This document shows, piece after piece, positions 19,365 through 62,305 of a stretch of DNA of 64,000 nucleotides (within the stretch, counting starts at the first letter, position 1; the number at the start of each line of letters is the position of its first letter). This DNA comes from a virus. Lineage: Duplodnaviria > Heunggongvirae > Uroviricota > Caudoviricetes. Below the pieces are notes generated by a model. The model searched no databases, was not told the origin of the DNA, and worked only from the letters and a program-made list of their open reading frames with translations. The position numbers and the translations under genes were made by a program. The stretch lies in IMG/VR virus record IMGVR_UViG_3300025944_000008. One strand, written 5' to 3'.

Positions 19365-19553
19365 ATGCGTGCAACCGCTGGTGTCGATTCGAGTCGCTAC
19401 GAGAAGATCGACGAGAACGTCTTTCGCATGAGACCCATCAGCGACCGTCCCAAGCGCCGCGTATTGACTCCGTTTGGTCGGGTTGTGATGTTTGCGCTGG
19501 GGGCGCTCATCACGTTCTTGATCTCGATCATGTATTACTTGCTGCATCGGTAG
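19365..19553 (+). CDS. small membrane protein
   Basis: aaaggag RBS; C-terminal hydrophobic helix VVMFALGALITFLISIMYYLL. Confidence 0.5.
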   Translation: MRATAGVDSSRYEKIDENVFRMRPISDRPKRRVLTPFGRVVMFALGALITFLISIMYYLLHR

Positions 19554-19639: not shown

Positions 19640-20001
<362 letters not shown>

Positions 20002-25248: not shown

Positions 25249-26322
25249 ATGGCGGTGAGCTTGTATGACGTTCTTGGCATGAAGAAGACGGCGACGGCTG
25301 AGCAAATCAAGAGCGCGTACCGGGCTCTCGCCAAGCGCTACCACCCGGACACCAACCCCGGGAACACCTTCGCCGAAGAGAAGTTCAAAGAGTTGGCCGC
25401 CGCCTACGCCGTCCTCGGTGATCCGCAAAAGAGAGCCAAGTACGACAGCGGCGCGGTTGGTGGTCCCATCACTCTCCAGACTCGCATGGGCCGCTTCGTC
25501 ATCAACGGCAACGCATTCACTGGAGAGGTGGCTGATATCTACGAGGCCATCAAGGAAGATACGGGAGAAGTCTTCGCTTTGAAGGTCGCGCGATCACCAC
25601 GAGACAATGACCTCCTCGAGAACGAGGCGAAAGTCCTGAAGGAGATCTATCCTTCAGACGTCTCAAGCCACAAGTACCATCTCTACCTGCCGAAGTTGAT
25701 CGGGAGCTTGAAGATCGACGACGGCTCTCGCCGACAGGCGAACCTCATGCAGTGGCTGAACGGCTACTACTCTCTCGAGAAGGTTCGCGCCGCTCATCCG
25801 AGGCTGCAGATGGAGCACGGGGTTTGGATGTTCAATCGCATGCTGGAGTTTCTCGGTTACCTGCACAACAAGCAGAATCGAGTGCATGGAGCGGTGATTC
25901 CTCCACATGCTCTCGTCTACGCGGGAACCCAAGAAAAAGACATCCTCAACCATGGCGCTCGGCTGGTGGGGTGGTCATATTCCGTGCAGGTGGGTGGAAC
26001 GATCAAAGCCATCAGCCCGGAGTATGAGGCGTTCTACCCGCCCGAAATCTTCGCCAAGCGCCCGGTCTCGCCCGCCACCGACATCTACATGGCTGCCAAG
26101 AGTATCATCCACGTACTCGGCGGCGATGTCCGTCCCGGGGCTGACGTCTACCCCGGCCATATCCCGAACTACTTTCTGAACTTCCTGAGAAGCTGCACCA
26201 TCAAGTCACCGGCATCTCGCCCGCAAGACGCCTGGGCTCTCCACCGAGAGCTCAAGGACCACATGCGGGTTCATTACGGTCCCAAGAAGTACGTCCCGTT
26301 TCACATGCCCTCACCGGCCTAA
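25249..26322 (+). CDS. J-domain (DnaJ) protein fused to protein-kinase-like domain
   Basis: [18 protein letters not shown] motif; downstream ALK / [10 protein letters not shown] / HGAVIPPH resemble kinase VAIK, aC-Glu and a degenerate catalytic loop. Confidence 0.6.
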
Positions 26323-47709: not shown

Positions 47710-47783
47710 ACTCCCGATCGGATTCGAACCGATACTGCCCGCGTTTTGAATGCGGTGCCTCTACCAGTTGGGCTACGGGAGCA
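47710..47783 (-). tRNA. tRNA (type I; loop UUCAAAA, anticodon CAA?; A31-C39 mismatch)
   Basis: T-arm ATCGGTTCGAATCCGAT. Confidence 0.4.
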
Positions 47784-47788
47784 TGAGT

Positions 47789-47863
47789 GCCGACGAGGAG
47801 ATTCGAACTCCTACTGTTCCGCTTCTAAGGCGGACGTCTCTACCAGTTGGACTACGTCGGCAT
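47789..47863 (-). tRNA. tRNA (type I; anticodon TAG)
   Basis: AC stem TCCGC/GCGGA loop CTTAGAA. Confidence 0.45.
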
Positions 47864-47950
47864 GGTGCTCGGGATGAGACTCGAACTCACACGGACTTTC
47901 GCCCACCGGCTTCTGAGACCGGCGCGTTTACCAGTTACGCCACCCGAGCA
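47864..47950 (-). tRNA. tRNA-Leu(CAG), CCA encoded
   Basis: Type II; stem CCGGT/GCCGG (G-U) loop CTCAGAA. Confidence 0.6.
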
Positions 47951-47957
47951 GATTTGT

Positions 47958-48041
47958 GCGAACGGGGAGACTCGAACTCCCACGGCCTTTCGGCCACCAG
48001 CACCTCAAGCTGGCGCGTCTACCAGTTCCGCCACGCTCGCA
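47958..48041 (-). tRNA. tRNA-Leu(GAG)
   Basis: Type II; stem CCAGC/GCTGG loop TTGAGGT. Confidence 0.6.
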
Positions 48042-48043
48042 TT

Positions 48044-48119
48044 GGTACAGCGCCAGGGACTCGAACCCTGCTCATCCTCCGTGTGAGAGAGGCATCACCA
48101 CCTGGTGAACTGCGCTGCG
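48044..48119 (-). tRNA. tRNA-Val(CAC), CCA encoded
   Basis: loop CTCACAC. Confidence 0.55.
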
Positions 48120-48123
48120 CAGT

Positions 48124-48190
48124 CGCTCGCATCGGAATCGAACCGATCTCCAAGGCGTATGAAGCCTCGTTCCTCCCAGAGGTCGAGCGG
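48124..48190 (-). tRNA. tRNA-Met/Ile2(CAT), compact (reduced D-arm)
   Basis: loop TTCATAC; 67 nt. Confidence 0.45.
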
Positions 48191-48191
48191 T

Positions 48192-48263
48192 AGCGGGCCC
48201 ACGAGTTGAACGTGGAATCTCTAGGTTATGAGCCTAGTGAGTTGCCCTTTCTCCAGCCCGCAG
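48192..48263 (-). tRNA. tRNA-Met(CAT)
   Basis: AC stem CTAGG/CCTAG loop CTCATAA. Confidence 0.55.
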
Positions 48264-48264
48264 T

Positions 48265-48338
48265 GTCCCTGGCCGGATTCGAACCGGCACTCTTCCGCTT
48301 AGGAGGCGGCTGCATGATCCAATCATGCTGCAGGGACG
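48265..48338 (-). tRNA. tRNA-Arg(CCT)
   Basis: loop CTCCTAA. Confidence 0.55.
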
Positions 48339-48344
48339 TGTTGT

Positions 48345-48416
48345 GCTCTCGGCAGGAATCGAACCTGCAACTCAGCCTTCGGAGGGCTGCATGATGTCCG
48401 TTTCACCACGAGAGCA
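48345..48416 (-). tRNA. tRNA-Arg(CCG)
   Basis: stem CAGCC/GGCTG loop CTCCGAA. Confidence 0.6.
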
Positions 48417-48542
48417 GAACTCGAGAAACACGTCATAGTAGAAGTGCCGTCTTGCGTAGATCACCAGGCGGTACATCCCTCTTTTGACGTACCTGACGTC
48501 TTGCCTGTGAATCCATGGAATCTTGAAAGGCTCTTCCATCAG

Positions 48543-48614
48543 CGTCCTCGCCAGGATTCGAACCTGGAATACAACGTTCGTAGCGTCGCGTGATATCCGT
48601 TTCACTACGAGGAC
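48543..48614 (-). tRNA. tRNA-Arg(ACG)
   Basis: loop CTACGAA. Confidence 0.6.
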
Positions 48615-48849
48615 AAGACATCTTGAGATCCGTAGCCGCGGTTTTGTTCTATGCCATCATTCGTCTAAGCAGCAACCCGGAGACTCGCCGGACAGGGTCA
48701 ACATCTCCTGTTTGCCTTAGTGCAGGCCGAGTTGTGGTTCAGCGGATTTCTCCTCCCACAGAGCTCGGACACTCGTCCTGAGCACCCGCGAACTTCCTCA
48801 GCGAGACGATTCCTTCCGCTCGCCGCGATGGCTCGAAATCAAGATGCGG

Positions 48850-48920
48850 AGCCCCGGGAGGGAATCGAACCCTCTTTTCATCCTTACCAAGGATGCGTCC
48901 TGCCATTGAACGACAGGGGC
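48850..48920 (-). tRNA. tRNA-Thr(GGT)
   Basis: stem CATCC/GGATG loop TTGGTAA. Confidence 0.6.
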
Positions 48921-49046
48921 CTATCAGTGTGCGCAGGCGGGCTATACTCCCGCGTCTCCGGCGTGGTGCAATCGACTTTCGTCTCCCACTCCCAGGTGCT
49001 TTCGCCCTCACTGGCTGGTGTCGTGGTTCAGACTTCTGCGCGTCGA

Positions 49047-49121
49047 TGGTGGAGCCGATGGGAATCGAACCCACCGCGGTCTGCTTGCAAAACAGTCCTG
49101 GTCACCAGACTTCTCGACCCC
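49047..49121 (-). tRNA. tRNA-Ala(TGC), CCA encoded
   Basis: G3-U70 in acceptor GGGGTCG/CGGCTCC; loop TTTGCAA. Confidence 0.5.
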
Positions 49122-49122
49122 A

Positions 49123-49395
49123 TTATGCTGCTTCACTCTCTGGCAAGATCGGATCACAGCCCCGTCGCCGGTTGCAGCCCTGATGGGCCAGGCGGAGGTT
49201 GTCGATGTGGTCCGTGCCTCCCCCCGACCTCGGGATGATGTGGTCGAAGGTGATGTACATCTCGCTGAAGACGTCCTTGATGCGGCGATCGAGGGCCTCC
49301 TTGCAGATCATGCAGGTCATCCCGTCCCGCGCCATCAGCTTTGTCACTCGCTGCCAGCGCCACTTGTGATGAAAGAGCCGCCGCGCTTTCGCCAT
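49123..49395 (-). CDS. HNH endonuclease (short)
   Basis: FDHIIPRSGGGTDHIDNLRLAHQGCNRRRG. Confidence 0.6.
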   Translation of the reverse strand: MAKARRLFHHKWRWQRVTKLMARDGMTCMICKEALDRRIKDVFSEMYITFDHIIPRSGGGTDHIDNLRLAHQGCNRRRGCDPILPESEAA

Positions 49396-49414
49396 GAGTG
49401 GATCCTACCATGAG

Positions 49415-49487
49415 TGGAGACGAAGGGGATCGAACCCTCGACCTCATCGTTGCGAACGATGCGCTCTCCCAACTGAGCTACGTCCCC
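49415..49487 (-). tRNA. tRNA-Ala(CGC)
   Basis: G3-U70; D-arm TAGCTCAGTTGGGAGAGCG; loop TTCGCAA. Confidence 0.65.
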
Positions 49488-49488
49488 A

Positions 49489-49563
49489 TGGTGCGGAAGG
49501 AGGGTATCGATCCCTCTACCTCTGGCGTGTCGAGCCAGCGCTCTACCAGTGAGCTACTCCCGC
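49489..49563 (-). tRNA. tRNA-Val(GAC), CCA encoded
   Basis: stem CTGGC/GCCAG loop TCGACAC. Confidence 0.65.
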
Positions 49564-49575
49564 GTGCTTCTTCAG

Positions 49576-49648
<73 letters not shown>

Positions 49649-49651
49649 GTA

Positions 49652-49690
49652 CTAGCTAAAGAAACGGGGCGAACCCCGTTTCGTGCTACC
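49652..49690 (-). terminator. terminator (minus strand) with TCTTTAGCTA motif
   Basis: On minus strand aacggggttcgccccgtt hairpin + tctttagctagtac. Confidence 0.55.
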
Positions 49691-49695
49691 CCTGC

Positions 49696-50664
49696 TTACG
49701 ACTTCCGAATGCTGCCGTTGACGCCCGCGTCCTTGAGCGTCGTCTGCAGCGTGGTGAGCGCCTCGCGGCTCGAGGTCGACTCGAGGGCCTTCGTGGCGAT
49801 CTCCGCGTTCTTCTGGTTGGCTTCCTTCAGCGCGATCTGCAGCTCTTCGTTCAGCTTCGTCAGCCGAGCGTTCTGCTCCGTAAGAGCCTTCTTGTCCGCC
49901 TCGTAGAGCGCCTTCTCGCTCGCCCGATCCTTCTCGAGGAGCTCCTTGGCGTGGTTGTGATCCCGAGTCAGGCGGTTGCTCTCGATTGCCACTGCCTGCT
50001 TGACCGCCTTCTCGATCTCGCCCAGGTGACCGGCGACCGCGGCCCGAAGATCGATCAGCTCCTTCTCACGGAGCTTCAGCTCGTCTTCCCGCTGCGCCCA
50101 GATCTTCTGGAGCTGGTCCTGGCGAGCGAGCTCTTGGATGTTGCGCACCCGGACCTGCTCGTTCCACGCATCCAGATCCGCCTTGCGGGTCTGCTTGGTC
50201 GTGTACTCGTAATCGGCCTGTTCGCGCTCGCGCTCCTTCTTCGTCGCGTTCCAGTCCTCGGCGTTCTTCGTGCGGGCTTCGAGGATCTCCTTCTCGAGCG
50301 CCGCCTTCTGCTCGTCGTGCTCGGCCTTCAGCACATCGAGGTGCTCGAGGATGACTCGGGCGCCGTAGAGCTTGGTGAGTTCCTTGGCCTCGAGGTCGAT
50401 GTTCGTCTTGACGTCCTGGAGGAGCGAGAGCTTGTTGGCCAGCTCCTCGTTGATCGTCGAAAGGGACTTCTGGGTTGCCAGGCTCGCCGCGGTGACGGCC
50501 TGCGCCGCCTTGCTCACTTCCAGCTCGGCGATCGAAGAGCGGGTCGCCTCGGCCGCCCGCGCCTGCAGCTCGATCTCCTTCTCCGACATCCCCGGCGGAA
50601 CGTTGAGGTTGGAGAAGGCGATCTTGGTCTCGATACGATTGCGCGAACGCTTCTTGTCGCTCAT
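49696..50664 (-). CDS. long coiled-coil protein
   Basis: 322 aa from ATG 50664 (aaggagag RBS); continuous heptad-like E/K/A/L composition. Confidence 0.55.
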   Translation of the reverse strand: MSDKKRSRNRIETKIAFSNLNVPPGMSEKEIELQARAAEATRSSIAELEVSKAAQAVTAASLATQKSLSTINEELANKLSLLQDVKTNIDLEAKELTKLYGARVILEHLDVLKAEHDEQKAALEKEILEARTKNAEDWNATKKEREREQADYEYTTKQTRKADLDAWNEQVRVRNIQELARQDQLQKIWAQREDELKLREKELIDLRAAVAGHLGEIEKAVKQAVAIESNRLTRDHNHAKELLEKDRASEKALYEADKKALTEQNARLTKLNEELQIALKEANQKNAEIATKALESTSSREALTTLQTTLKDAGVNGSIRKS

Positions 50665-50739
50665 GGTCTCTCTCCTTGGAAACGCTAAAGGGCAAAATTG
50701 CCCGCGCTTCCTTATCTCTGCGAGAGAGAACTTTTGCGA

Positions 50740-50815
50740 TGGTGCTCCAGGTCGGGATCGAACCGACGCCTCCGCTTTTTCAGAGCGGCGCACAGACCCT
50801 CTATGCTACCGGAGC
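50740..50815 (-). tRNA. tRNA-Phe(GAA), CCA encoded
   Basis: stem CCGCT/AGCGG loop CTGAAAA. Confidence 0.65.
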
Positions 50816-50891
50816 GTTGGCACCTCTGCCGGGTCGCTAGGCCGGATCGCCTCGGTAACGGCCGAGGAGCTCTGCATTTGAGCTACGGAGA

Positions 50892-50967
50892 TGGCGCCTG
50901 CGACGAGGATCGAACTCGCCGAATCTCCCGTGACAGGGGAGCGTCCACACCAGTGGACCTCGCAGGC
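50892..50967 (-). tRNA. tRNA-Asp(GTC), CCA encoded
   Basis: stem CTCCC/GGGAG loop CTGTCAC. Confidence 0.65.
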
Positions 50968-51034
50968 ATCGGACGATGAGGTGAGCGCTCACCTCTCTCT
51001 GCGCGGAGCGACAGATAGCCTTCGTCCTTGCTAT

Positions 51035-51111
51035 TGGGGTGAACGACGGGAGTCGAACCCGCTAGCACCTGATCCACAATCAGGCGGCTCCTCCATTTTG
51101 CCTTCGTCCAC
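51035..51111 (-). tRNA. tRNA-His(GTG), CCA encoded
   Basis: loop TTGTGGA; discriminator C73. Confidence 0.65.
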
Positions 51112-51116
51112 CATAC

Positions 51117-51193
51117 TGGTCCGTTGGGACGGGATTCGAACCCGCACCTTCTGATCCACACTCAGACGTGCTGCCATTGAACACTACCCACGG
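51117..51193 (-). tRNA. tRNA-His(GTG)-like second copy, CCA encoded
   Basis: stem TCTGA/TCAGA loop GTGTGGA; acceptor one mismatch. Confidence 0.4.
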
Positions 51194-51195
51194 GG

Positions 51196-51267
51196 TGCGC
51201 CCTGAAGGATTCGAACCCTCATATCTCGCTAATCAGGCGAGTGTCCTAACCGTTGGACGAAAGGCGC
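51196..51267 (-). tRNA. tRNA-Ile(GAT)
   Basis: stem CTCGC/GCGAG loop CTGATTA. Confidence 0.65.
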
Positions 51268-51280
51268 ATGGCAAATCTAG

Positions 51281-51352
51281 TCGGAGTGGGGAGGATCGAA
51301 CTCCCGATCTCTCGGTCCCGAACCGAGCGCGATACCGCTTCGCTACACTCCG
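51281..51352 (-). tRNA. tRNA-Pro(CGG)
   Basis: stem CTCGG/CCGAG loop TTCGGGA. Confidence 0.65.
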
Positions 51353-51484
51353 ATTGTGGCAACCGTCTTCAGGTAGCGAACCTGAAGAGTTCTTCCCCGC
51401 CCCGGCTGTCGCAGGTCGGCATGTAAGGCTGTGCCCTCTTCGTCCGGTCACACTGCACCGGCACTGCGTCGAGGCTACGTAGAG

Positions 51485-51556
51485 TCGGGATGGCCAGGAT
51501 CGAACTGGCGACCTCTCGCACCCCAAGCGAGCGCGCTACCGCTGCGCTACATCCCG
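51485..51556 (-). tRNA. tRNA-Pro(GGG)
   Basis: loop TTGGGGT. Confidence 0.65.
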
Positions 51557-51565
51557 TGATTCTAC

Positions 51566-51640
51566 TGGTCAAGGTGAGAGGACTCGAACCTCCAGCCACT
51601 CGGTCCCAAACCGAGAGCTCTACCATTGAGCTACACCTTG
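51566..51640 (-). tRNA. tRNA-Pro(TGG), CCA encoded
   Basis: loop TTTGGGA. Confidence 0.65.
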
Positions 51641-51709
51641 ATACTCGCACCGGATCAAAACCGTTCCTCTCGACACCAGGCCGAGCGTGCATCACACACT
51701 GCTATTGAG

Positions 51710-51785
51710 TGGTCTCCCGCACGGGAGTTGAACCCGTATTGTCCGCGTGAAAGGCGGTTCTCCTTGCCAGTTAGAGGAGCGGGAG
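51710..51785 (-). tRNA. tRNA-Glu(TTC), CCA encoded
   Basis: loop CTTTCAC. Confidence 0.6.
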
Positions 51786-51860
51786 ATTGTCACGCTTCAA
51801 TGGGGCTTCAACCCATTCCTCGGGCTTTGGAGGCCCGTATGCGCCAACACCGTATTTGCG
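51786..51860 (-). tRNA. tRNA-Trp(CCA)-like (acceptor stem unclear)
   Basis: AC stem CGGGC/GCCCG loop CTCCAAA; T-arm ATGGGTTGAAGCCCCAT; 5'/3' ends do not pair cleanly. Confidence 0.35.
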
Positions 51861-51936
51861 TGGTGACCCCACCGGGATTCGAACCCGGACACCTGCCTTG
51901 AGAGGGCAGTCACCTAACCGTTAGTGGATGGGGCCG
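51861..51936 (-). tRNA. tRNA-Glu(CTC), CCA encoded
   Basis: stem CTGCC/GGCAG loop CTCTCAA. Confidence 0.65.
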
Positions 51937-51939
51937 TAA

Positions 51940-52010
51940 TGGAGGTCCGCTGCGGAGTCGAACCGCACTCACGAGGTTTGCAATCTCGTTCGCTCCCAGA
52001 ACTGCGGACC
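51940..52010 (-). tRNA. tRNA-Cys(GCA), CCA encoded
   Basis: loop TTGCAAA with A31-C39 mismatch. Confidence 0.55.
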
Positions 52011-52015
52011 ACTTG

Positions 52016-52087
52016 CTCCAGAGACAGGATTCGAACCTGTGACCTTCCGGTTAACAGCCGGCTGCTCTTCCGCTGAGCTACACTGGA
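52016..52087 (-). tRNA. tRNA-Asn(GTT)
   Basis: loop CTGTTAA; D-arm TAGCTCAGCGGAAGAGC. Confidence 0.55.
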
Positions 52088-52303
52088 ATGATCATGACGA
52101 AGACCAAAGCCGAAACTTCTCTGCCTCTCGACTACGAGGTCACCTCCGCTCGTCCTACGTGGGTAACCATCACTCTTCCAGACGGTAGTCAGTACCAAGC
52201 AAGCATTGTCACATCTGTGGTGGGCGTGAAGACCAAGCCCGGATCTGGTGACGTTTCCTTCGATTTCGAAATCAACTGGCAAGCACGCTGGGAGAAAGTC
52301 TAG
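52088..52303 (+). CDS. small hypothetical protein inside tRNA array
   Basis: 71-aa protein-like ORF; weak RBS. Confidence 0.35.
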   Translation: MIMTKTKAETSLPLDYEVTSARPTWVTITLPDGSQYQASIVTSVVGVKTKPGSGDVSFDFEINWQARWEKV

Positions 52304-52375
52304 AGCCGACGGTCGGAATCGAACCGACAACCTTCGCTTTACAAGGGCGCTGCACTTCCGTTGTGCTACGTCGGC
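52304..52375 (-). tRNA. tRNA-Thr(TGT)? (weak anticodon stem)
   Basis: loop CTTGTAA; good acceptor/T-arm. Confidence 0.45.
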
Positions 52376-52462
52376 AGAGTCACCCTAGTCCTCTCCGCAC
52401 CCGGAGTCCTTTGCCTCGTCAGGCGGTGCTCCATGGAGACCAGAGGAGACGACATCGGGCGG

Positions 52463-52532
52463 TTCCGGGTGAGGGACTCGAACCCCCACATACGGTGTCA
52501 GAGACCGCTGTCCTACCATTAGACGAACCCGG
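52463..52532 (-). tRNA. tRNA-Gln(CTG)
   Basis: stem GCGGT/ACCGT loop CTCTGAC. Confidence 0.6.
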
Positions 52533-52542
52533 AGTAGAAACG

Positions 52543-52615
52543 TTGGATCGGGCTCTGGGTGTCGATCCCAGCAAGCAGGATTTCAAAGACCCCGCCCCTC
52601 GCCGGAGGCGCCCGA
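52543..52615 (-). tRNA. tRNA-Gln(TTG), CCA encoded
   Basis: loop CTTTGAA; T-arm CTGGGATCGACACCCAG. Confidence 0.5.
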
Positions 52616-52773
52616 ACAAAAGACCGAGTGCTCTACCAATTGAGCTAGTGGGTTGAGAGAGCTCGCGAGACTTCTCAAGGAGACCAGAGGCCCGCACCGT
52701 CGACGGCCATCGACGGAGACCAAGGGGCCGCACCTTCCCACCCAGGACTCGAACCTGGATCACCCGGTTTTAG

Positions 52774-52844
52774 AGCGCGTGGCGGGGATTGAACCCGCGC
52801 AGCCAGTTTGGAAGACTGGAATGCTACCGCTACATCACACGCGC
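52774..52844 (-). tRNA. tRNA-Gly(TCC)
   Basis: stem CCAGT/ACTGG loop CTTCCAA. Confidence 0.65.
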
Positions 52845-52848
52845 ATTG

Positions 52849-52920
52849 TGCTCCCGTAGGGTGTCGAACCCTCGCCAACGGATTAAAAGTCCGCTGCTCT
52901 ACCGCCCGAGCTCCGGGAGC
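52849..52920 (-). tRNA. tRNA-Lys(TTT)
   Basis: loop CTTTTAA. Confidence 0.6.
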
Positions 52921-52973
52921 TGACTATGCTGCTGTCGGCTCGGGCTTGATTTTCGTTCCATGCTTCACCTCAG

Positions 52974-53045
52974 TGGGTGCCGTGGGAGTCGAACCCACAA
53001 CCAACGGATTAAGAGTCCGCTGCACTTCCATTGTGCTAGGCACCC
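52974..53045 (-). tRNA. tRNA-Lys(CTT)
   Basis: loop CTCTTAA. Confidence 0.65.
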
Positions 53046-53142
53046 AAAGCCCCGACTGTGTCGCGACGGCACATGCCGGAGCCAGTTTCTTCGCTGTCGA
53101 CTATTCGGTTTTCAAAGTCGCGGCGAGAGCTACTCGCCTCGG

Positions 53143-53226
53143 TGCCGGAGCCCGGACTCGAACCGGGTTGTTCCTGGGGACGACTGTTTTACAGACAGCC
53201 TCGGTGACCTTACCGTCAACCCCGGC
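53143..53226 (-). tRNA. tRNA-Tyr(GTA)
   Basis: Type II; stem GCTGT/ACAGT loop CTGTAAA. Confidence 0.6.
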
Positions 53227-53307
53227 AAACGTGCCGGCTCACTCGCCGGCAGCACTTCTTACTACGCTACTGCATCACCTTCATCGGAGCACTCTCCTGA
53301 ATTCCCC

Positions 53308-53383
53308 TGGTGCGGATGACCGGATTCGAACCGGCTACCTCATGCTTGGCAAGCACGCGTGCAACCAAGTACACCTCATCCGC
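53308..53383 (-). tRNA. tRNA-Gly(GCC), CCA encoded
   Basis: loop TTGCCAA. Confidence 0.6.
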
Positions 53384-53389
53384 GTTCAG

Positions 53390-53460
53390 AGCCCCCGGCG
53401 AGAATCGAACTCGCATTCCTGGTTTACGAAACCAGTGTCCTGCCGTTGAACGACAGGGGC
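53390..53460 (-). tRNA. tRNA-Thr(CGT)
   Basis: stem CTGGT/ACCAG loop TTCGTAA. Confidence 0.6.
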
Positions 53461-53465
53461 ATTTG

Positions 53466-53533
53466 CGGGCCGCCAAGGAATCGAACCCTGCACGCCGAGA
53501 TTTGGAGTCTCCGCTGAGCCCAGCTCGCTGCCC
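53466..53533 (-). tRNA. tRNA-Trp(CCA)-like (68 nt)
   Basis: loop CTCCAAA; acceptor one mismatch. Confidence 0.45.
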
Positions 53534-54574
53534 ATCACTGCTGCCGATCCGCACCTCCAAAAACGAAGAGGGCCGGGAGACTCTCGTCTGCCGACCCTCT
53601 AGCAAGTTCCCTTATCGGGAGTCCTTCTAGGGGCCGGCACCTTCCCAATTGGCCAGATGACCGGCGAAGAGGCGGATGCTCGGCTGCTCCTGGCGATCGC
53701 ACGAATAGCCAATGAGCGAGGCGCCCGAGCGCTTCGTCCCTTTGGTCGTCATATGCGAGGTCCTGGTCAGCACTGTCTTGATCCTGTTTATAGGTCTACG
53801 CAGGCGCGGAAATAACGTCAACTACTTTTTTCGAGTATCTCGGATCTCGCGAGAATCAGAAAGACAAAAGGCCCTCGGTGTCAACCGAGAGCCTTCTGCC
53901 TGCCCACCGCCGAGTGGCACCACCACGAAGTGTCTTTTCGTCAGTCGTGGTCTGACAGCCAGGTACGAACGCGCAGGACGCGTCGCAACATCAGACTGCC
54001 AGACAAGCAGGCGGTCGTCAACTTGACTCTCCTACTGTATGGGGCAAGATCGGCATCGGTCGTGCGGACTTTGTTTTAGTAGTCGCCAGCGAGCCGGTGA
54101 ACGTACCGGGGAGAGTTCGGTCGGACGTGCAGACGTAGCACGGAGCTCCCAGGCGGGTCTCATTCCCAGAGGGGCGGCGCAGCGATGAACCCTGACGATG
54201 CACGATTTGACGACCGTGACTGCCAGTAGATCTCGCTGGGGAACACCGCCCATCCGCGTCCTGATTCGAAAAATCCTCCCCCGAGCGGGAGGGGCAAGCG
54301 GCCCTGTCGAGACCGAACACCAGAACGGAAATAGGCTTCACTGACCTGTTCCTGCGTTCGGTACGGAAGCGTTCTTCAGAAGCACGACGGCGACATGCCT
54401 CGAAAGGGGTGTCCGGTGCGGAGAACGACGAGGGCCGATCAGCTCTACTTCTCCCTCGCCGGGTAGAAACTTGGCGAGCGGTTGAAATAGTAGAGGGGAA
54501 GAGGCGGTAGAGGTCTATCTAGCGTCAGTGAAGAAGAAGGACTACTTCCTGAAGCATTTCCGCGCCTTACAAGA

Positions 54575-54632
54575 AATCCCTCGCTCCCTCTTCAGGTACT
54601 TCCAGGAAAAAGAAATCCGCTCGCTCGAAGGA
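54575..54632. repeat. direct repeat AAGAAATCC(C/G)CTCGCTC x2
   Basis: Two near-identical 17-nt units ~33 nt apart. Confidence 0.45.
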
Positions 54633-54705
54633 GTATTTTTCGAACGGATCTTCGTATGTCGCTTTTCGGTCTTTTCTTGTCTTGAGCCCTTGACTACATC
54701 TGTCT

Positions 54706-54760
54706 TCGTGTCTTAACTACAAGACGTAAAGAATGTCTTGGGCTGAAGACAAGACAAAAT
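54706..54760. promoter_or_regulatory. operator-like inverted repeats GTCTT-N6-AAGAC (x2) plus extra GTCTT/AAGAC half-sites
   Basis: gtcttaactacaagac and gtcttgggctgaagac immediately upstream of 54778 gene. Confidence 0.5.
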
Positions 54761-54777
54761 CCGAAAGAGAGGCCTCA

Positions 54778-54897
54778 ATGCCGCGTGGTGTGTACGATCG
54801 TAGCAAGACGAAGTCGAAGGCGAAGAAGACCGCTGCCCCGAAGGTGGCCAAGAAGACGACCAAGAAGAAGGTCGCCGCCAAGAAGGAGAGCAAGTAA
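54778..54897 (+). CDS. Lys/Ala-rich histone-like small protein
   Basis: 39 aa MPRGVYDRSKTKSKAKKTAAPKVAKKTTKKKVAAKKESK; gagagg RBS. Confidence 0.4.
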   Translation: MPRGVYDRSKTKSKAKKTAAPKVAKKTTKKKVAAKKESK

Positions 54898-55401
54898 ATG
54901 CCTCGTGGCGTCTACGAGCGCAAGCCGAAGGGCGAGAAGGCGGCCGCTCCCGCCAAGAAGGCACCCGTGGCGAAGGCCGCGGTGAAGGCCAAGCCGAAGG
55001 CGGTGAAGGTCGCCAGCACGCCGGTCGCCGAGTCTGCCCTCCTCAAGACCGTCGGCCCGGAGGCCGAGTCGTTCTCGTCCGGCCTGTACGTCCTCGGCCA
55101 GGGAATCGCCACCCTCGGCGACGCCTACGAGAAGGTGAAGTCCAGCAGCACTCTCGAGCCGATCGTCGCCGCCGAGCTGCGTGAGCTGGTCTCCGCCTTC
55201 TCGACCCTTCGCCAGCGCGCCTTCGCCGGCGTGACGGAAGAGCCGAAGTCGACGGTGGCCGAAGTGGTCGAGGAGCCGGCTGTCGAAGAGGCTCCTGCCC
55301 CGGTTGCGGCCGCTCCCGCGGTCGTTGCTCCGGTGATGCCGACGATGCCGACCGGTAACTCGAGCTTCACGCCTCCCGCTCCGCCCGTCCCGCACCACTA
55401 G
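54898..55401 (+). CDS. Lys/Ala/Pro-rich histone H1-like protein (paralogous N-terminus MPRGVYER)
   Basis: 167 aa; AKKAPVAKAAVKAKPKAVK repeats. Confidence 0.5.
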   Translation: MPRGVYERKPKGEKAAAPAKKAPVAKAAVKAKPKAVKVASTPVAESALLKTVGPEAESFSSGLYVLGQGIATLGDAYEKVKSSSTLEPIVAAELRELVSAFSTLRQRAFAGVTEEPKSTVAEVVEEPAVEEAPAPVAAAPAVVAPVMPTMPTGNSSFTPPAPPVPHH

Positions 55402-55536
55402 ATCCCGCCCCGCAATCTCTCCCGACTTCCTGTTATAAGTCTAGTAGATGGAGACGCGCATTTCGGTGCGAGTCTCATCGGTAGGACCCAATGGGTTCTC
55501 GCGGGGAAACCCGCGCAGTTTTAGCCGGGAGACATC

Positions 55537-56310
55537 ATGGACAATCTCGTCCACATCGCTCTGTGGCGATACAGGAACGGCCACATTGGCGTCGCAGTAG
55601 TCCCACCCGCCGATCAGTTCAACGCATTTCTGAATTCGGTCGTAGGAGTGGCTAGACTCGTCGGGCAGGTCTACCCGGAAGACAACATCTTCTTTTTCCC
55701 TTCCGAGTTGATCTCGGAGACGGCGGCCCTGGTAAGTTCCGTCTTTGGCTCTACCTGCTGCTCTACGTGCATCCAAATGAAGGCGCCGTGCGGACGCTGG
55801 GTTCAGAAGATGACGGAGGAGTTCAGGCAGAAGTACGGCGAGACTACGCTGATCCCACTGGGCTACAACGAACCGCGATCGGAAACACTGACTCAGCTCT
55901 CTCGCTACTCGGTCGCTGTTCGTGACACGCTTGATTCCCGAACGGACCTCACGCCAACTCCTGTGGAGCCCAGACGCCGCAGACTCCCAGACTTAGAAGC
56001 AATCGGTAGACTCAGACTCACCGAACGGCAAGCCAGAGAGGCCGAGACCCTTCCTGTTCGCCCGACTCCCCGAAACCTTCCTCCTGAAACCATCCAGCAA
56101 GCTCCCACGCCAGCAGGCACAATCCGCTGCACCCACTGCGGCCAGGTGATCCCTCCTGGCTTCGACAAGACCAAGGATACGAAGAAGACGGCGGACGAGA
56201 TCTACGCTGAGTGCAAGCACGAGTTCAACCCGACGACGAAGATCTGCTCAAAGTGCAGGATGGAAGAGAGAACTGAAGGCAGCCGTTTCTCTTTCTTGGA
56301 GGTGGACTGA
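55537..56310 (+). CDS. hypothetical protein with C-terminal zinc ribbon
   Basis: ggagaca RBS; CTHCGQ...CSKC. Confidence 0.5.
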   Translation: MDNLVHIALWRYRNGHIGVAVVPPADQFNAFLNSVVGVARLVGQVYPEDNIFFFPSELISETAALVSSVFGSTCCSTCIQMKAPCGRWVQKMTEEFRQKYGETTLIPLGYNEPRSETLTQLSRYSVAVRDTLDSRTDLTPTPVEPRRRRLPDLEAIGRLRLTERQAREAETLPVRPTPRNLPPETIQQAPTPAGTIRCTHCGQVIPPGFDKTKDTKKTADEIYAECKHEFNPTTKICSKCRMEERTEGSRFSFLEVD

Positions 56311-56729
56311 TGATCGTCAAGGGGATCAAGTGCCCGAGCTGCGACGACGTGGTTTGGTCGCGCGGTCAATACGATTTCCGCTACTGCTCTTGCAGAAGGT
56401 CATGGGTCGACGGTGGGCGTGAATACCTCCGCATCGGCGGCATCGCCGCAAAGGAGCCGCAGAAGCACATCATCGACATCAGCCTCGACGACCGTGACGC
56501 TCGCGTCTGGAGAAGTGGCGGCAGATACCTCACGCACCGAGAGATGAGCGATGACCATCTCAAGAACTGCATCGTCCACCTGCACAACAGGATCGAGGAG
56601 TCGGAAAACGAGGAGGAGATGGGATTGAAGCTGGTCGAGGATCGCGCCGAGCTTCGCCGTATCATCGAGGAGATGAAAGAAGAGCTCGCCCATCGCGGCG
56701 TCTTCAACATCGTCGGGGAGGTTCATTGA
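56310..56729 (+). CDS. zinc-finger protein
   Basis: CPSCDD...YCSCRRS; ATG overlaps upstream stop. Confidence 0.5.
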   Translation: MIVKGIKCPSCDDVVWSRGQYDFRYCSCRRSWVDGGREYLRIGGIAAKEPQKHIIDISLDDRDARVWRSGGRYLTHREMSDDHLKNCIVHLHNRIEESENEEEMGLKLVEDRAELRRIIEEMKEELAHRGVFNIVGEVH

Positions 56730-56938
56730 TGAAGCTACTGGCCGCAAAAAAGACGACGGCAGAACTGACTCTCGACGAGCTTCGGCGCGAGCGTCAGTTC
56801 TTGAAAGAATGGACGTTCATCCTGCGCTATGGCTCGATACGTAACCTCACCGAGCACGAGCAGCAATTGCTGGACCGGTTCAAAGAGCTCACTGAGGAGC
56901 TGATAAAGCGGAGGGACAATGGCGCGCAAGTGGGGTGA
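56726..56938 (+). CDS. hypothetical protein
   Basis: 70 aa, ATGA overlap. Confidence 0.4.
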   Translation: MMKLLAAKKTTAELTLDELRRERQFLKEWTFILRYGSIRNLTEHEQQLLDRFKELTEELIKRRDNGAQVG

Positions 56939-57551
56939 CCTGTCGGACGAGGAGCAGAAAGACGCTGTTTCCACTCTTCACGCCGCCCGCAGAGACTGGA
57001 AAGCGATGTACCCGACGCACCTCCAGCTCGAGCTCTTGGAGGTCGCAATCAACCACCTCGACGCCTCTCGTCGTCGCTACAACGGAGGTATGACGGGCTA
57101 CGGTGTCGGCATCGTCGTCGTGCTGTTCAACAAGGCCGGCGAAATTCTCGTCGGAAAGCGTAAGGGCTCGCAGGGCGCCGGCACGTGGGGCCTGCCTGGC
57201 GGCAAGCTCGAGTCGAAGAAGTCAGCTCTCGCCCAAGTCAGGACGGAACTACTCGAAGAGACTGGCATCGACATGCCTGTCGCTCGCTTCCATACCCTCG
57301 AGTGGGTAGACAACATCTGGGACGACAAGGATCGAGGCTTGCAACACTGGGTTACGCTCTTCACTCAGGCGGCTCATGAGGACGCGTTCGGTATACCCAA
57401 GGTCATGGAGCCTGGTAAGTGTGAGGAGTGGCTCTGGGTCAAGGGACAAGACCTCGTCGACCACAAGATTCACCTGTTCCCTCCTCTCGCGCGCTTCGTC
57501 GAGCTCTACCCGCACATCGTCCTCAAACCATACGTCCTCCAGGAGAAGTAA
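56919..57551 (+). CDS. NUDIX hydrolase
   Basis: Nudix box GGKLESKKSALAQVRTELLEETGI (Gx5Ex7REUxEExGU). Confidence 0.65.
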   Translation: MARKWGDLSDEEQKDAVSTLHAARRDWKAMYPTHLQLELLEVAINHLDASRRRYNGGMTGYGVGIVVVLFNKAGEILVGKRKGSQGAGTWGLPGGKLESKKSALAQVRTELLEETGIDMPVARFHTLEWVDNIWDDKDRGLQHWVTLFTQAAHEDAFGIPKVMEPGKCEEWLWVKGQDLVDHKIHLFPPLARFVELYPHIVLKPYVLQEK

Positions 57552-57704
57552 ATGCCCGACGAGCTCAAGCCAATCATCAAGAAGTTCCTTCACTACTCCT
57601 TCAACGACATCGACTACAACTACGACTCACTCACGGAGCATGAGCAGTCGATCGCAACGAAAGAGGAGTTCGAGAAACTCGTCGCATGGGTCAAGGAGGG
57701 GTGA
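57552..57704 (+). CDS. small hypothetical protein
   Basis: 50 aa. Confidence 0.3.
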   Translation: MPDELKPIIKKFLHYSFNDIDYNYDSLTEHEQSIATKEEFEKLVAWVKEG

Positions 57705-57706
57705 TC

Positions 57707-57859
57707 ATGGCCAAGGAGATCGAAGTCGAGTGCAAGAAGTGCAAGGGCGAGGGCTACCTCGGCAAGGGGAAGAAGCAGCCCTGCAACAAGTGCGTCGATC
57801 CGCAAACCAAGAAGCCGACTGGGAAGTTCCGCCAGCAGGTTGCGGACAATCGGCCGTGA
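57707..57859 (+). CDS. small zinc-ribbon protein
   Basis: aaggagggg RBS; CKKCKG...CNKC. Confidence 0.4.
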   Translation: MAKEIEVECKKCKGEGYLGKGKKQPCNKCVDPQTKKPTGKFRQQVADNRP

Positions 57860-58128
57860 TCTCCAACTGGGCTACGCAGGCTGAAGCGGCGAAGGAAATC
57901 TTCCGAAAGACGGAAGCGGAGATCGAGCTCTTCATCAAGAAGCTCAGGTTCGCCGGCATCGAAGTCCACAGATTACAAGACGAAGTCATCATCGATCTTC
58001 GCGAAAACCAGTTGGACCTGTATGCTGCGATCGTCAGCGACAGCGTGGGGAGTGCATCATGCGAACCTGGTTGCGACGAGTCTGGTGCAAGTTCTGGCAC
58101 CACGGACTCTGGAAGACCGAAGAGGTAG
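57856..58128 (+). CDS. hypothetical protein
   Basis: GTG overlapping upstream stop. Confidence 0.3.
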   Translation: MISNWATQAEAAKEIFRKTEAEIELFIKKLRFAGIEVHRLQDEVIIDLRENQLDLYAAIVSDSVGSASCEPGCDESGASSGTTDSGRPKR

Positions 58129-58214
58129 CTGGCCGCATCTGCAAGCGGCGCTGCCTGGAATGTGAAGAGATCTACTTCGTGACGTTGCCACCAATTCCCG
58201 ACTTTCTGAGGTAA
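58059..58214 (+). CDS. small Cys-rich protein (alternative frame)
   Basis: 51 aa MRTWLRRVWCKFWHH...CKRRCLECEE. Confidence 0.25.
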   Translation: MRTWLRRVWCKFWHHGLWKTEEVAGRICKRRCLECEEIYFVTLPPIPDFLR

Positions 58215-58342
58215 GATCAGTCGGAGAGCACTTCGGTCCTCGGTTCTGCTCGGAGCGTTGTCATTGGAAAGATGCGAACCCCCCCTGCGCATCTCCCCGA
58301 CCAGTGATAGCGCTCCGAGTAGAGCTGGGGACCGCTTCTTAG

Positions 58343-58693
58343 CTACTTGGCTCCGTACCACGTGTGATCGAAGAACTCCAAGTCAGACGTCGCCAGGTGC
58401 CCGTGGACGAGCTTCGGGTTGAGCCCGAGCTTCTGGGCCCACTCCTGAGCGATCTCCTTGAGAGAGGTCTCGAGCGGCTGCGGCTTGGCGTATATCGACG
58501 CCGTGCGCCCGGTTGAGATGGCGGCGAGAAGAGAGCAGATCATCCTCGTCGATCGCCCTGTCTGACGATCTCCCCAGTTGAGGCTGATGCCTTCTGCTGC
58601 GGCGAGCTGCTCGCGCTCATTCACACGCTTTCTGGCGAACCCCTCGAACGGTGTGAGGCTGAGGGCTTTGCGGACGTCTTCGGCCGAGAGCAT
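58343..58693 (-). CDS. hypothetical protein
   Basis: Protein-like from MLSAEDVRKALSL... Confidence 0.3.
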   Translation of the reverse strand: MLSAEDVRKALSLTPFEGFARKRVNEREQLAAAEGISLNWGDRQTGRSTRMICSLLAAISTGRTASIYAKPQPLETSLKEIAQEWAQKLGLNPKLVHGHLATSDLEFFDHTWYGAK

Positions 58694-61575: not shown

Positions 61576-61722
61576 TTACTGCTGGGGCTTGATGGCGTAC
61601 TCGAGGAAGGCCATCGCTTCAGGCTTCTTCGCTTCCTCACGCGGCGTCGGGTCCAGTTTCTTCGCCATTGCTTCCTGACGCTTTGCCTCTTCGTAGAGCT
61701 TGTCTTCGGACTGCTTCGGCAT
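61576..61722 (-). CDS. small hypothetical protein
   Basis: 48 aa. Confidence 0.3.
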   Translation of the reverse strand: MPKQSEDKLYEEAKRQEAMAKKLDPTPREEAKKPEAMAFLEYAIKPQQ

Positions 61723-62305
61723 GTCGCACCTCTGCCTCTTGGAGGTGCATCTTCCTTGCCGAGAGACGAGCGATACCGAGATGGCGCAGCGCCTTGTCGA
61801 TGTCCCTGAGCGAGAGCCCGATTCGTGCGCTGGTCCGCACCAGCTTGTGGCGCAGCGAGGCCATATCAGCCGTGTCGTCGAGGATGACGAAGGCCTCGAC
61901 GCCCGGATTCTCATCGAGCCAGCGCTTGATCTCCTTTCCTCGGGGCACCGACTCCGACATCCTCCTCGGCAGGTTGGTTGGTGTCTTGCCGATGACCTCC
62001 CCTATCATGCCGACACGCTTCAGTAGCTCGACCAGGTCGCCGAACTTTGGCCTGCCCTTGGCGTCGTCGTAGAAGTGCCTCCACGACGAGCTGATGACGA
62101 TCTTCGCTCCCGTCGAGCGGATGATGGAGTTCAGGTTGGTGATGCAGATCTCGTCGAAGAGCAGGTGGACGTGGCGGTGGATGATGTCAATCCGTCCCTG
62201 CACCTCCGGGTTCTGCTCCGGGTCCTCGCGCTGCGCCCTGGCGTACTCTTCGTAGTTCTTGTTCGTGTTGAGAACGCCGTCGATGTCCAGAAAGATGACC
62301 TTCAC
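61637..62305 (-). CDS. HAD-superfamily phosphatase-like protein
   Basis: MKVIFLDIDGVLNT (DxDGV motif I); GTG start with gaggtgag RBS. Confidence 0.55.
   Translation of the reverse strand: MKVIFLDIDGVLNTNKNYEEYARAQREDPEQNPEVQGRIDIIHRHVHLLFDEICITNLNSIIRSTGAKIVISSSWRHFYDDAKGRPKFGDLVELLKRVGMIGEVIGKTPTNLPRRMSESVPRGKEIKRWLDENPGVEAFVILDDTADMASLRHKLVRTSARIGLSLRDIDKALRHLGIARLSARKMHLQEAEVRHAEAVRRQALRRGKASGSNGEETGPDAA

Follow-up and report, generated by a model that had tools for sequence, protein, structure and literature searches.

A conserved cis-regulatory region with a GGGCTG element upstream of paralogous polycationic protein genes in a huge-phage-like genome

What do two palindromes of the form GTCTT-N6-AAGAC control when they stand in front of two adjacent lysine-rich genes of a phage? 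The question is raised by positions 54575-55401 of a 64,000-nt stretch of the Caudoviricetes virus record IMGVR_UViG_3300025944_000008, hereafter called the window, whose ~59% GC genome is huge-phage-like and whose relatives form a group of giant soil phages. A sequence-only reading of this locus had described symmetric operators and a tandem direct repeat upstream of paralogous, histone-like genes, seen as a putative module for DNA packaging or nucleoid remodelling and starting at 54575, which precedes the first relevant element by ~100 nt. The genes for the paralogous polycationic proteins do follow a regulatory site, but this is not an operator pair accompanied by a tandem repeat; its element has more the look of a leader signal specific to the protein family than of a classical repressor operator. 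Positions 54690-55401 may make up a single expression unit of this huge soil phage.

Both palindromes are exact 16-bp sequences, as had been claimed. Palindrome 1 (GTCTTAACTACAAGAC, 54710-54725, + strand) covers a -10-like box together with a conserved CAAGAC in the probable start region, while palindrome 2 (GTCTTGGGCTGAAGAC, 54735-54750, + strand) reads GTCTT-GGGCTG-AAGAC, lies in the inferred 5′ leader with its GGGCTG core at 54740-54745, and could form a 5-bp stem with a 6-nt loop. They are the only exact GTCTT-N6-AAGAC sites in the window, and the search for additional sites that the sequence-only reading had suggested yielded no further exact copy; dinucleotide shuffles contain 0.12 such sites on average, and none of 100 shuffles reaches two. 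Allowing one mismatch adds a single, unrelated site at 19419. The GTCTT and AAGAC half-sites reach 8 per 100 nt at 54652-54751, the window maximum, compared to a window mean of 0.28. A further AAGAC (54751-54755, + strand) is an alternative pairing partner for GUCUU(G), and (A/G)AGAC is found at this place in every palindrome-bearing lineage. The tandem 17-nt direct repeat is not there: Tandem Repeats Finder (minimum score 30) finds none upstream of the genes, and the closest candidate is an imperfect 21-nt repeat (54678-54698 versus 54701-54721, 15 of 21 positions identical, period 23), which sets GTCTT..CTTGACT at the -35 box against GTCTT..CTTAACT at the -10-like box.

The comparison set consists of 12 diverged lineages whose proteins are ~35-50% identical, and it draws on the DNA of 11 lineages beyond the window (L001, L002, L004/L136, L105, L135, L137, L138, L181, L182 and L183), including a 94%-identical relative (L135). 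Across the upstream alignment of all 12, TTGACT, the TCGTGnCT spacer, a T(T/A)ACT or TACTAC box, and CAAGAC are kept. Where enough flanking DNA is available, the loci are also syntenic, with a ~1.3-kb spacer followed by the lysine-rich operon, a gene for a protein of ~250 amino acids (aa), and then DUF7695 and/or NUDIX genes. Conserved over such protein divergence, this is a real, selected cis-regulatory region, and that part of the earlier proposal stands.

The two palindromes differ in their conservation. All 16 positions of palindrome 2, including its loop, are invariant in the 10 of 10 lineages that have a short open reading frame (ORF) as the first gene, and they are followed by (A/G)AGAC and a strong Shine-Dalgarno (SD) sequence. 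Palindrome 1 has its 6-nt spacer only in the window and L135, has 7 or 8 nt instead in L002, L138 and L181, and is absent from L001, L004/L136, L105, L137, L182 and L183, with a right arm that drifts. Conservation of the repeats in related genomes, on which the sequence-only reading had staked its proposal, was found for palindrome 2 in 10 lineages, and was not found for palindrome 1 as a palindrome. The arms of palindrome 2 track the short ORF, being present in 10 of 10 lineages that carry this ORF and in 0 of 2 close lineages that lack it; in the latter two, L182 and L183, the arms are gone and GGGCTG is kept. Strong selection acts on palindrome 2, in a pattern opposite to the prediction for a symmetric dimer operator: the arms are not more conserved than the spacer between them, and the non-palindromic GGGCTG is the sole part left in L182, L183, L101, L102, L113 and L120. 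The last four of these belong to a set of eight distant relatives, giving GGGCTG in 4 of 8 leaders, as against 8 of 125 unrelated genes with an MPRGVY start, which served as controls and whose matches lie in unrelated contexts. The distance of GGGCTG from its surroundings varies from 14 to 29 nt past the -10-like box and from 12 to 51 nt before the ATG; since it is tied to neither, it fits a transcribed leader element. Each related locus has one leader copy of the palindrome element and no second copy across 75 kb. A search of IMG/VR with GTCTTGGGCTGAAGAC returned 8 matches, every one in an unrelated coding context, and a scan of genome contigs for GGGCTG-N10-40-MPRGVY returned chance matches only.

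The sequence upstream of palindrome 2 quite possibly contains a conserved sigma-70-like promoter, as judged from its TTGACT, a pyrimidine-rich spacer of 17-19 nt and a TACT-type -10 box. The -35-like TTGACT (54690-54695, + strand) matches TTGACA at five of six positions and is invariant in 12 of 12 lineages; distant family members have TTGAC(C/G/T) at the equivalent place. The -10-like box (54713-54720, + strand) overlaps the left arm of palindrome 1 and can be read as TTAACT after a 17-nt spacer or as AACTAC after 19 nt. Relatives have TTTACT or TACTAC here, with TCGTGnCT..ACT kept in all lineages, and distant relatives have TACTCA, TACTCT or TACACC, 16-17 nt past TTGAC. The conserved CAAGAC at the probable start site would give a leader of ~55-75 nt. 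An SD-like AGAGAGG (54766-54772, + strand) precedes the short gene's ATG by 5 nt, and all relatives have GAGAGG or GGAGG at this position. An ATG at 54733 (MSWAED...) was rejected as the true start, as it is absent and its frame is broken in relatives.

The two adjacent genes begin with MPRGVYDR (54778-54897) and MPRGVYER (54898-55401), in agreement with the earlier description, and their first 24 nt are 83% identical. The short ORF (+ strand, 39 aa, MPRGVYDRSKTKSKAKKTAAPKVAKKTTKKKVAAKKESK) encodes a peptide with an isoelectric point of 10.8, a net charge of +14 and 36% Lys; in 10 lineages its length varies from 31 to 51 aa and its Lys content from 30 to 42%, with a net charge of +13 to +15 at any length, and differences between lineages are mainly synonymous in the first 8 codons. 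The long ORF (+ strand, 167 aa) encodes MPRGVYER plus a K/A/P-rich disordered segment (residues 1-54), a helical hairpin (56-109), an acidic, Pro-rich tail and a C-terminal SFTPPAPPVPHH motif; its residues 1-40 contain 25% K, 28% A and 12% P with a net charge of +10. The last codons of the short ORF, KESK (AAG GAG AGC AAG), hold the SD sequence of the long gene, and its stop touches or overlaps the long gene's ATG (TAA-ATG in the window; TAATG, TAGATG, TAGCCATG and TAGAGATG elsewhere). Stop and start make contact in differing frames, which points to termination-reinitiation coupling. Stop-codon read-through or frameshifting from the short to the long ORF was considered and rejected, because the frame of the junction varies by lineage.

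Nine homologues of the long protein (P0001-P0009) were found in a collection of 5.8 billion proteins, and the family comprises ~92 clusters at 50% identity; its members are 130-210 aa long and none is annotated. Both termini are conserved, with MPRGVY(D/E)RKPK at the N-terminus and (L)PQGNxxFTPPAPPxLP(H/Q)H at the C-terminus, the latter motif also being written as FTPPAPPxPHH. AlphaFold2 predicts two helices for the long protein, at 56-80 and 86-109, with a predicted local distance difference test score (pLDDT) of ~90; the rest scores low, falling below 50 for residues 11-54. Modelled in this way, the helical hairpin may be of a dimerisation type. Profile searches of Pfam, NCBIfam and PHROG gave zero matches for both proteins at E values up to 1 or 0.01; a PDB profile search gave only a chance match (E=0.044), and a fold search of BFVD gave nothing at E ≤0.001, structure searches being uninformative past the helical hairpin.

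Are these proteins histone-like? The data support that they are genuine paralogues, polycationic and largely disordered, and they most likely act as non-specific polycationic nucleic-acid binders, to judge from composition only. Both have the Lys/Ala/Pro-rich, basic, disordered segment by which polycations of the Hc1, AlgP and H1 type are grouped as a functional class, and the composition does resemble the tails of H1, Hc1, AlgP, HupB or HBHA, as had been proposed for the first three; however, neither has a profile match to Hc1/Hc2, H1/H5, HU/IHF, H-NS, Lsr2 or any other family, and 'histone-like' is an analogy rather than a membership. The likeness to Hc1/Hc2 of Chlamydia, AlgP of Pseudomonas, the C-terminal tails of actinobacterial HupB/HupS, HBHA and the C-terminal domains of eukaryotic H1 consists of PAKKA-like K/A/P repeats with a net charge of +10 to +15 over 30-50 residues and predicted disorder. 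In HBHA, which is reported to be a nucleoid-associated protein of mycobacteria (PMC10665949), and in HupB, it extends to a helical or coiled oligomerisation element joined to a Lys-rich tail, as in the long phage protein. In contrast, no detectable sequence or profile relationship connects these tails to the phage proteins, whose polycation is N-terminal and comes after the specific peptide MPRGVY(D/E)R; an acidic tail and the conserved FTPPAPPxPHH are further features of the long protein, and the phage encodes a coupled short/long pair of candidate DNA binders.

The N-terminal peptide has a wider distribution. MPRGVY(D/E)R recurs on many unrelated, mostly phage proteins (loci L016-L180, from metagenome and IMG/VR matches), including AAA ATPases of ~280 aa, NUMOD3-like and HNH-like proteins, small K-rich proteins and a bacterial family of ~364 aa; it occurs at 42 loci in IMG/VR, where an estimated chance expectation is only a few. 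A back-translated search that found it on so many unrelated proteins led to its rejection as a diagnostic of the family. The string 'MPRGVY' was not found in any paper.

How, then, might the region work? The reading favoured here, though with less than even confidence, is that a promoter and a leader, whose anatomy is drawn from the comparison of lineages, drive a coupled operon whose protein level would be set by the family-specific GGGCUG, most simply through autogenous feedback. The promoter would be of a host type, and the proteins would be made early. Transcription would produce a leader and then a bicistronic message for a polycation of 31-51 aa and a translationally coupled protein of 160-200 aa. 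Palindrome 1 would be a by-product of the GTCTT of the -10 region and the AAGAC at the start site, and the selected core of palindrome 2 would be GGGCTG, specific to the long-protein family. In the clade with the short ORF, the GTCTT/AAGAC arms and the extra AAGAC repeats could display GGGCUG in the loop of a hairpin. GGGCUG would then be recognised within the mRNA leader or, with lower probability, as DNA immediately past the start, and it would set the expression of abundant nucleic-acid-binding proteins, the simplest route being feedback by the operon's own products. No repressor-type gene was found in the window downstream of the operon.

There are precedents for such a design in phage T4, where gp32 autoregulates on its own leader and gp43 has a hairpin operator. 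The resemblance lies in a unique, gene-specific element of the 5′ leader, a small hairpin with a 5-bp stem before the SD sequence of an abundant, putative nucleic-acid-binding protein; moreover, gp32 and the long phage protein share a basic N-terminus and an acidic C-terminus. The differences are that no oligonucleotide-binding (OB) fold or polymerase is present here, and that the conserved core is 6 nt long and also occurs without a stem.

Several observations count against the autoregulatory reading. The -10 assignment is ambiguous between the 17-nt and the 19-nt spacer, as the TTAACT/TTTACT candidate at 17 nt scores 3-4 of 6 and TACTAC is the alternative at 19 nt, and the transcription start is a predicted one; a simple sigma-70 consensus scan returns 0 sites here, with the A missing at position 2 of the -10 hexamer. 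The arms of palindrome 2 never vary, and consequently offer no covariation that would prove an RNA hairpin. Thermodynamic folding gives the 5-bp hairpin a probability of ≤0.03, and the single-sequence minimum free energy structure prefers GUCUUG/CAAGAC or extended variants that pair with the downstream AAGAC. Further, a 6-nt core is short for specific recognition, and Lys-rich disordered tails usually bind non-specifically, which makes self-recognition of GGGCUG a conjecture. Recognition of GGGCTG could also occur in DNA rather than RNA, which is less likely; distant members have unrelated small hairpins at the same leader position (CGTCT..AGACG in L167; also in L021, L076, L106 and L168), and these mildly favour a role at the RNA level. 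The Rfam 15 covariance models have no match within 54575-55401 and only weak, chance-level ones within 53535-55700. RNAduplex calculations led to the rejection of base pairing between the leader and the conserved RNAs on its flanks, since shuffled leaders did as well and no consistent site was involved.

If the palindromes were instead classical DNA operators, a dimeric repressor of phage or host would bind the GTCTT-N6-AAGAC duplex around +10 to +30 as well as across the -10 box and block RNA polymerase to give tight on/off control. Two exact inverted repeats spaced 25 bp apart, over the -10/start region and just past it, have a typical repressor geometry, and their perfect 5-bp arms and 6-bp spacer resemble Xre/Cro/RHH-type phage operators; the arms are invariant in 10 lineages, additional half-sites occur on both sides at the density given above, L182 carries AAGACGTCTT just 5′ of its -35 box, and most relatives encode a ~320-aa HTH_3 protein 3-4 kb downstream. 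However, palindrome 1 is conserved neither in spacing nor in presence, and the asymmetric GGGCTG is as invariant as the arms, which are dispensable in relatives, and outlives them in L182, L183 and more distant relatives. Each segment has a single copy, with no second site in the window or in the 75 kb of relatives and none near any regulator gene, and no cognate regulator is found in the window. The HTH_3 gene is not detectable there even though the palindrome is intact, and its absence argues weakly against the HTH_3 protein as the binder. The symmetric operator of the sequence-only reading is not borne out by these results, and a DNA-level repressor is considered unlikely. A passive leader is a somewhat poorer explanation. 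The GUCUU/AAGAC stem-loop would stabilise an abundant mRNA, in the manner of the 5′ hairpin of ompA, or tune ribosome loading with no trans-acting factor, and GGGCUG would be kept for structural or translational reasons. The element's location between the probable start and the SD sequence suits this role, as do the unrelated hairpins in the same place in distant members and the purine-rich, unstructured downstream leader with its strong SD sequence. But stabiliser hairpins tolerate change, and the invariance of 16 nt at ~35-50% protein identity would not be expected of them; GGGCTG also persists where no hairpin can form around it, and the hairpin would begin ~6-17 nt from the 5′ end that is inferred from the -10 position, and not at the end itself.

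Processive antitermination of the lambda N/nut type would make the leader hairpin a boxB-like site in the nascent RNA, to which the first gene product or products would bind through their basic N-terminus, with the C-terminal proline motif contacting RNA polymerase or Nus factors to allow read-through of the hairpin and U-tract after the operon. The order of elements does recall pL-nutL(boxB)-N, with a promoter, a hairpin with a 5-bp stem, a small, basic, disordered first product and a terminator-like hairpin downstream; the long protein combines an N-terminal basic peptide with a separate conserved C-terminal motif, and conserved CGCGGGGAAACCCGCG plus CAGUUUUAG lie between the operon and the next genes. 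Against this, the loop is a GGGCUG hexamer rather than a GNRA-like pentaloop; the basic region is rich in Lys, Ala and Pro with 2 Arg versus 10-14 Lys, and has no arginine-rich motif; no boxA was identified, a UCUUUAC-like stretch being the putative -10 box and probably untranscribed; neither protein has homology to N, Q or other antiterminators; and the hairpin is absent in members that lack the short ORF. Such a mechanism appears distinctly improbable. Finally, the palindromes could be functionless chance products of low-complexity, CT-rich/GA-rich intergenic DNA. A pyrimidine-rich upstream and a purine-rich downstream region do raise the local odds of GTCTT and AAGAC, and palindrome 1 is lineage-specific; yet the shuffles never produced two exact sites, and palindrome 2 is invariant over lineages with saturated synonymous sites, which effectively refutes chance for palindrome 2 and leaves it scarcely credible for the locus.

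Besides the leader, the neighbouring 'intergenic' DNA is 70-83% identical across lineages and contains three candidate structured regions, none of which matches Rfam. Block B (54044-54340, + strand, with conservation reaching ~54570) is a candidate large structured noncoding RNA that is 76-78% identical to L001, L004, L137, L138 and L002, whose proteins are ~40% identical. Its consensus fold on the + strand has 68 pairs, of which 20 show double (compensatory) changes, and 96.8% of its cells are paired; ~45 G·U cells, which become mismatches on the other strand, indicate that the + strand is the relevant one. A TTGAC box lies just 5′ of Block B, at ~54022. Block A (53535-53835, - strand), 72-83% identical in all lineages including L181-L183, is a candidate small RNA or leader of the tRNA operon; it has an A-tract, a promoter-like TTGACG-N17-TAGACC element and ~230 nt of predicted structure, and directly ahead of the tRNA array stands a strong GC hairpin with TTTTT after it. 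The third region (55425-55536, + strand) follows the operon and comprises CTTCCTGTTATAAG, two hairpins whose sequence varies between lineages, then CGCGGGGAAACCCGCG (55500-55515), which is invariant, CAGTTTTAGCC and the SD sequence of a 257-aa gene; it also contains CTTCCTGTNATAAG. Its equivalent has three hairpins in each of 8 lineages; the first two cannot be aligned at the sequence level, which is why RNAalifold on a MAFFT alignment performed poorly. A predicted CUUCCUG:CAGGAG pairing, with CUUCCUG on the 5′ side of the region, (the SD sequence being CAGGAG or CGGGAG) would occlude the SD of the 257-aa gene, and this modelled complementarity suggests attenuation or SD occlusion.

Other structures and reading frames were noted in the same DNA. 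Two terminator-like hairpins are found on the - strand, at 54275-54292 and 53862-53901. The former (CCTCCCGCTCGGGGGAGG then ATTTTTCG) has compensatory changes and an invariant A5 run and lies inside the + strand Block B; it may terminate transcription in both directions or just be a stem-loop within the + strand RNA. L182 (approximately 5770-5905) and L183 (approximately 1295-1430) have a different conserved long hairpin, GGATCTTCGGCG...GGGAAAGCGACCCGTCACGAAGATCC, immediately 5′ of TTGACT and after a T-run. An ORF at 54018-54341 (- strand) was tested as a homologue of a 106-109 aa gene of L002 and L004 and was rejected as not homologous.

The locus sits at a point of divergence between a leftward tRNA array and a rightward gene cluster. 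The array is a single one of 43 tRNA genes (44117-53460, - strand), with the same gene order in L001, L002, L004 and L138. At 53466-53534 (- strand) there is probably an extra tRNA that ARAGORN overlooked, with a weak tRNA-Sec-type match in Rfam (22.6 bits); L001 and L138 have a tRNA-Trp(cca) at the equivalent position. A transfer-messenger RNA (tmRNA) is located at 19640-20000, and near the tRNA/tmRNA region a gene at 61637-62305 (- strand) encodes a HAD_SAK_2 domain ('Swiss Army Knife' RNA-repair protein, 1.5e-31), as does a gene in the same neighbourhood of L182. Proteins of the window include a RIIA homologue, a PARP-like protein, adenylosuccinate synthetase and ligases. Some of the cargo is unusual for a phage, namely the products of three + strand genes (30828-33623, 40464-41888 and 25249-26322): a 931-aa protein with a major-vault-protein shoulder domain (1.4e-23), a protein that joins PARP catalytic, WGR and regulatory domains, and a DnaJ/protein-kinase fusion. 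A blastn search of 53500-58500 against GenBank phages gave no match, leaving the genome without a nucleotide relative there.

A bolder extension would join the leader, the proteins and the flanking RNAs. MPRGVY(D/E)R-polycation proteins and GGGCUG would be an undescribed, phage-specific RNA-protein regulatory pair, acting by autogenous translational control or N-like antitermination, in which the short peptide, being monovalent, would compete or partner with the dimeric long protein; together with the two unannotated, predicted structured RNAs (54044-54340, + strand; 53535-53835, - strand) beside the 43-tRNA array, it would belong to an RNA-centred takeover apparatus, rather than to a DNA 'histone'. 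We regard this extension as rather improbable.

Huge phages hold many unannotated early genes, and this locus provides a compact promoter and leader that lend themselves to experiments and stay invariant between genomes that have diverged widely. Its 6-nt core, GGGCTG, is tied to a single family of ~92 protein clusters, and it encodes a coupled short/long polycationic pair with conserved terminal peptides that is open to direct synthesis and testing. Candidate structured RNAs that are conserved and have no Rfam counterpart lie in the 1.3-kb 'spacer' by the tRNA array, and they may be the more novel objects of the region. Should the proteins prove to coat DNA or RNA at an early stage of infection, phages would have their own analogue of linker histones or of HBHA-type proteins; should they instead recognise the leader, the two would form a new autoregulatory or antitermination pair.

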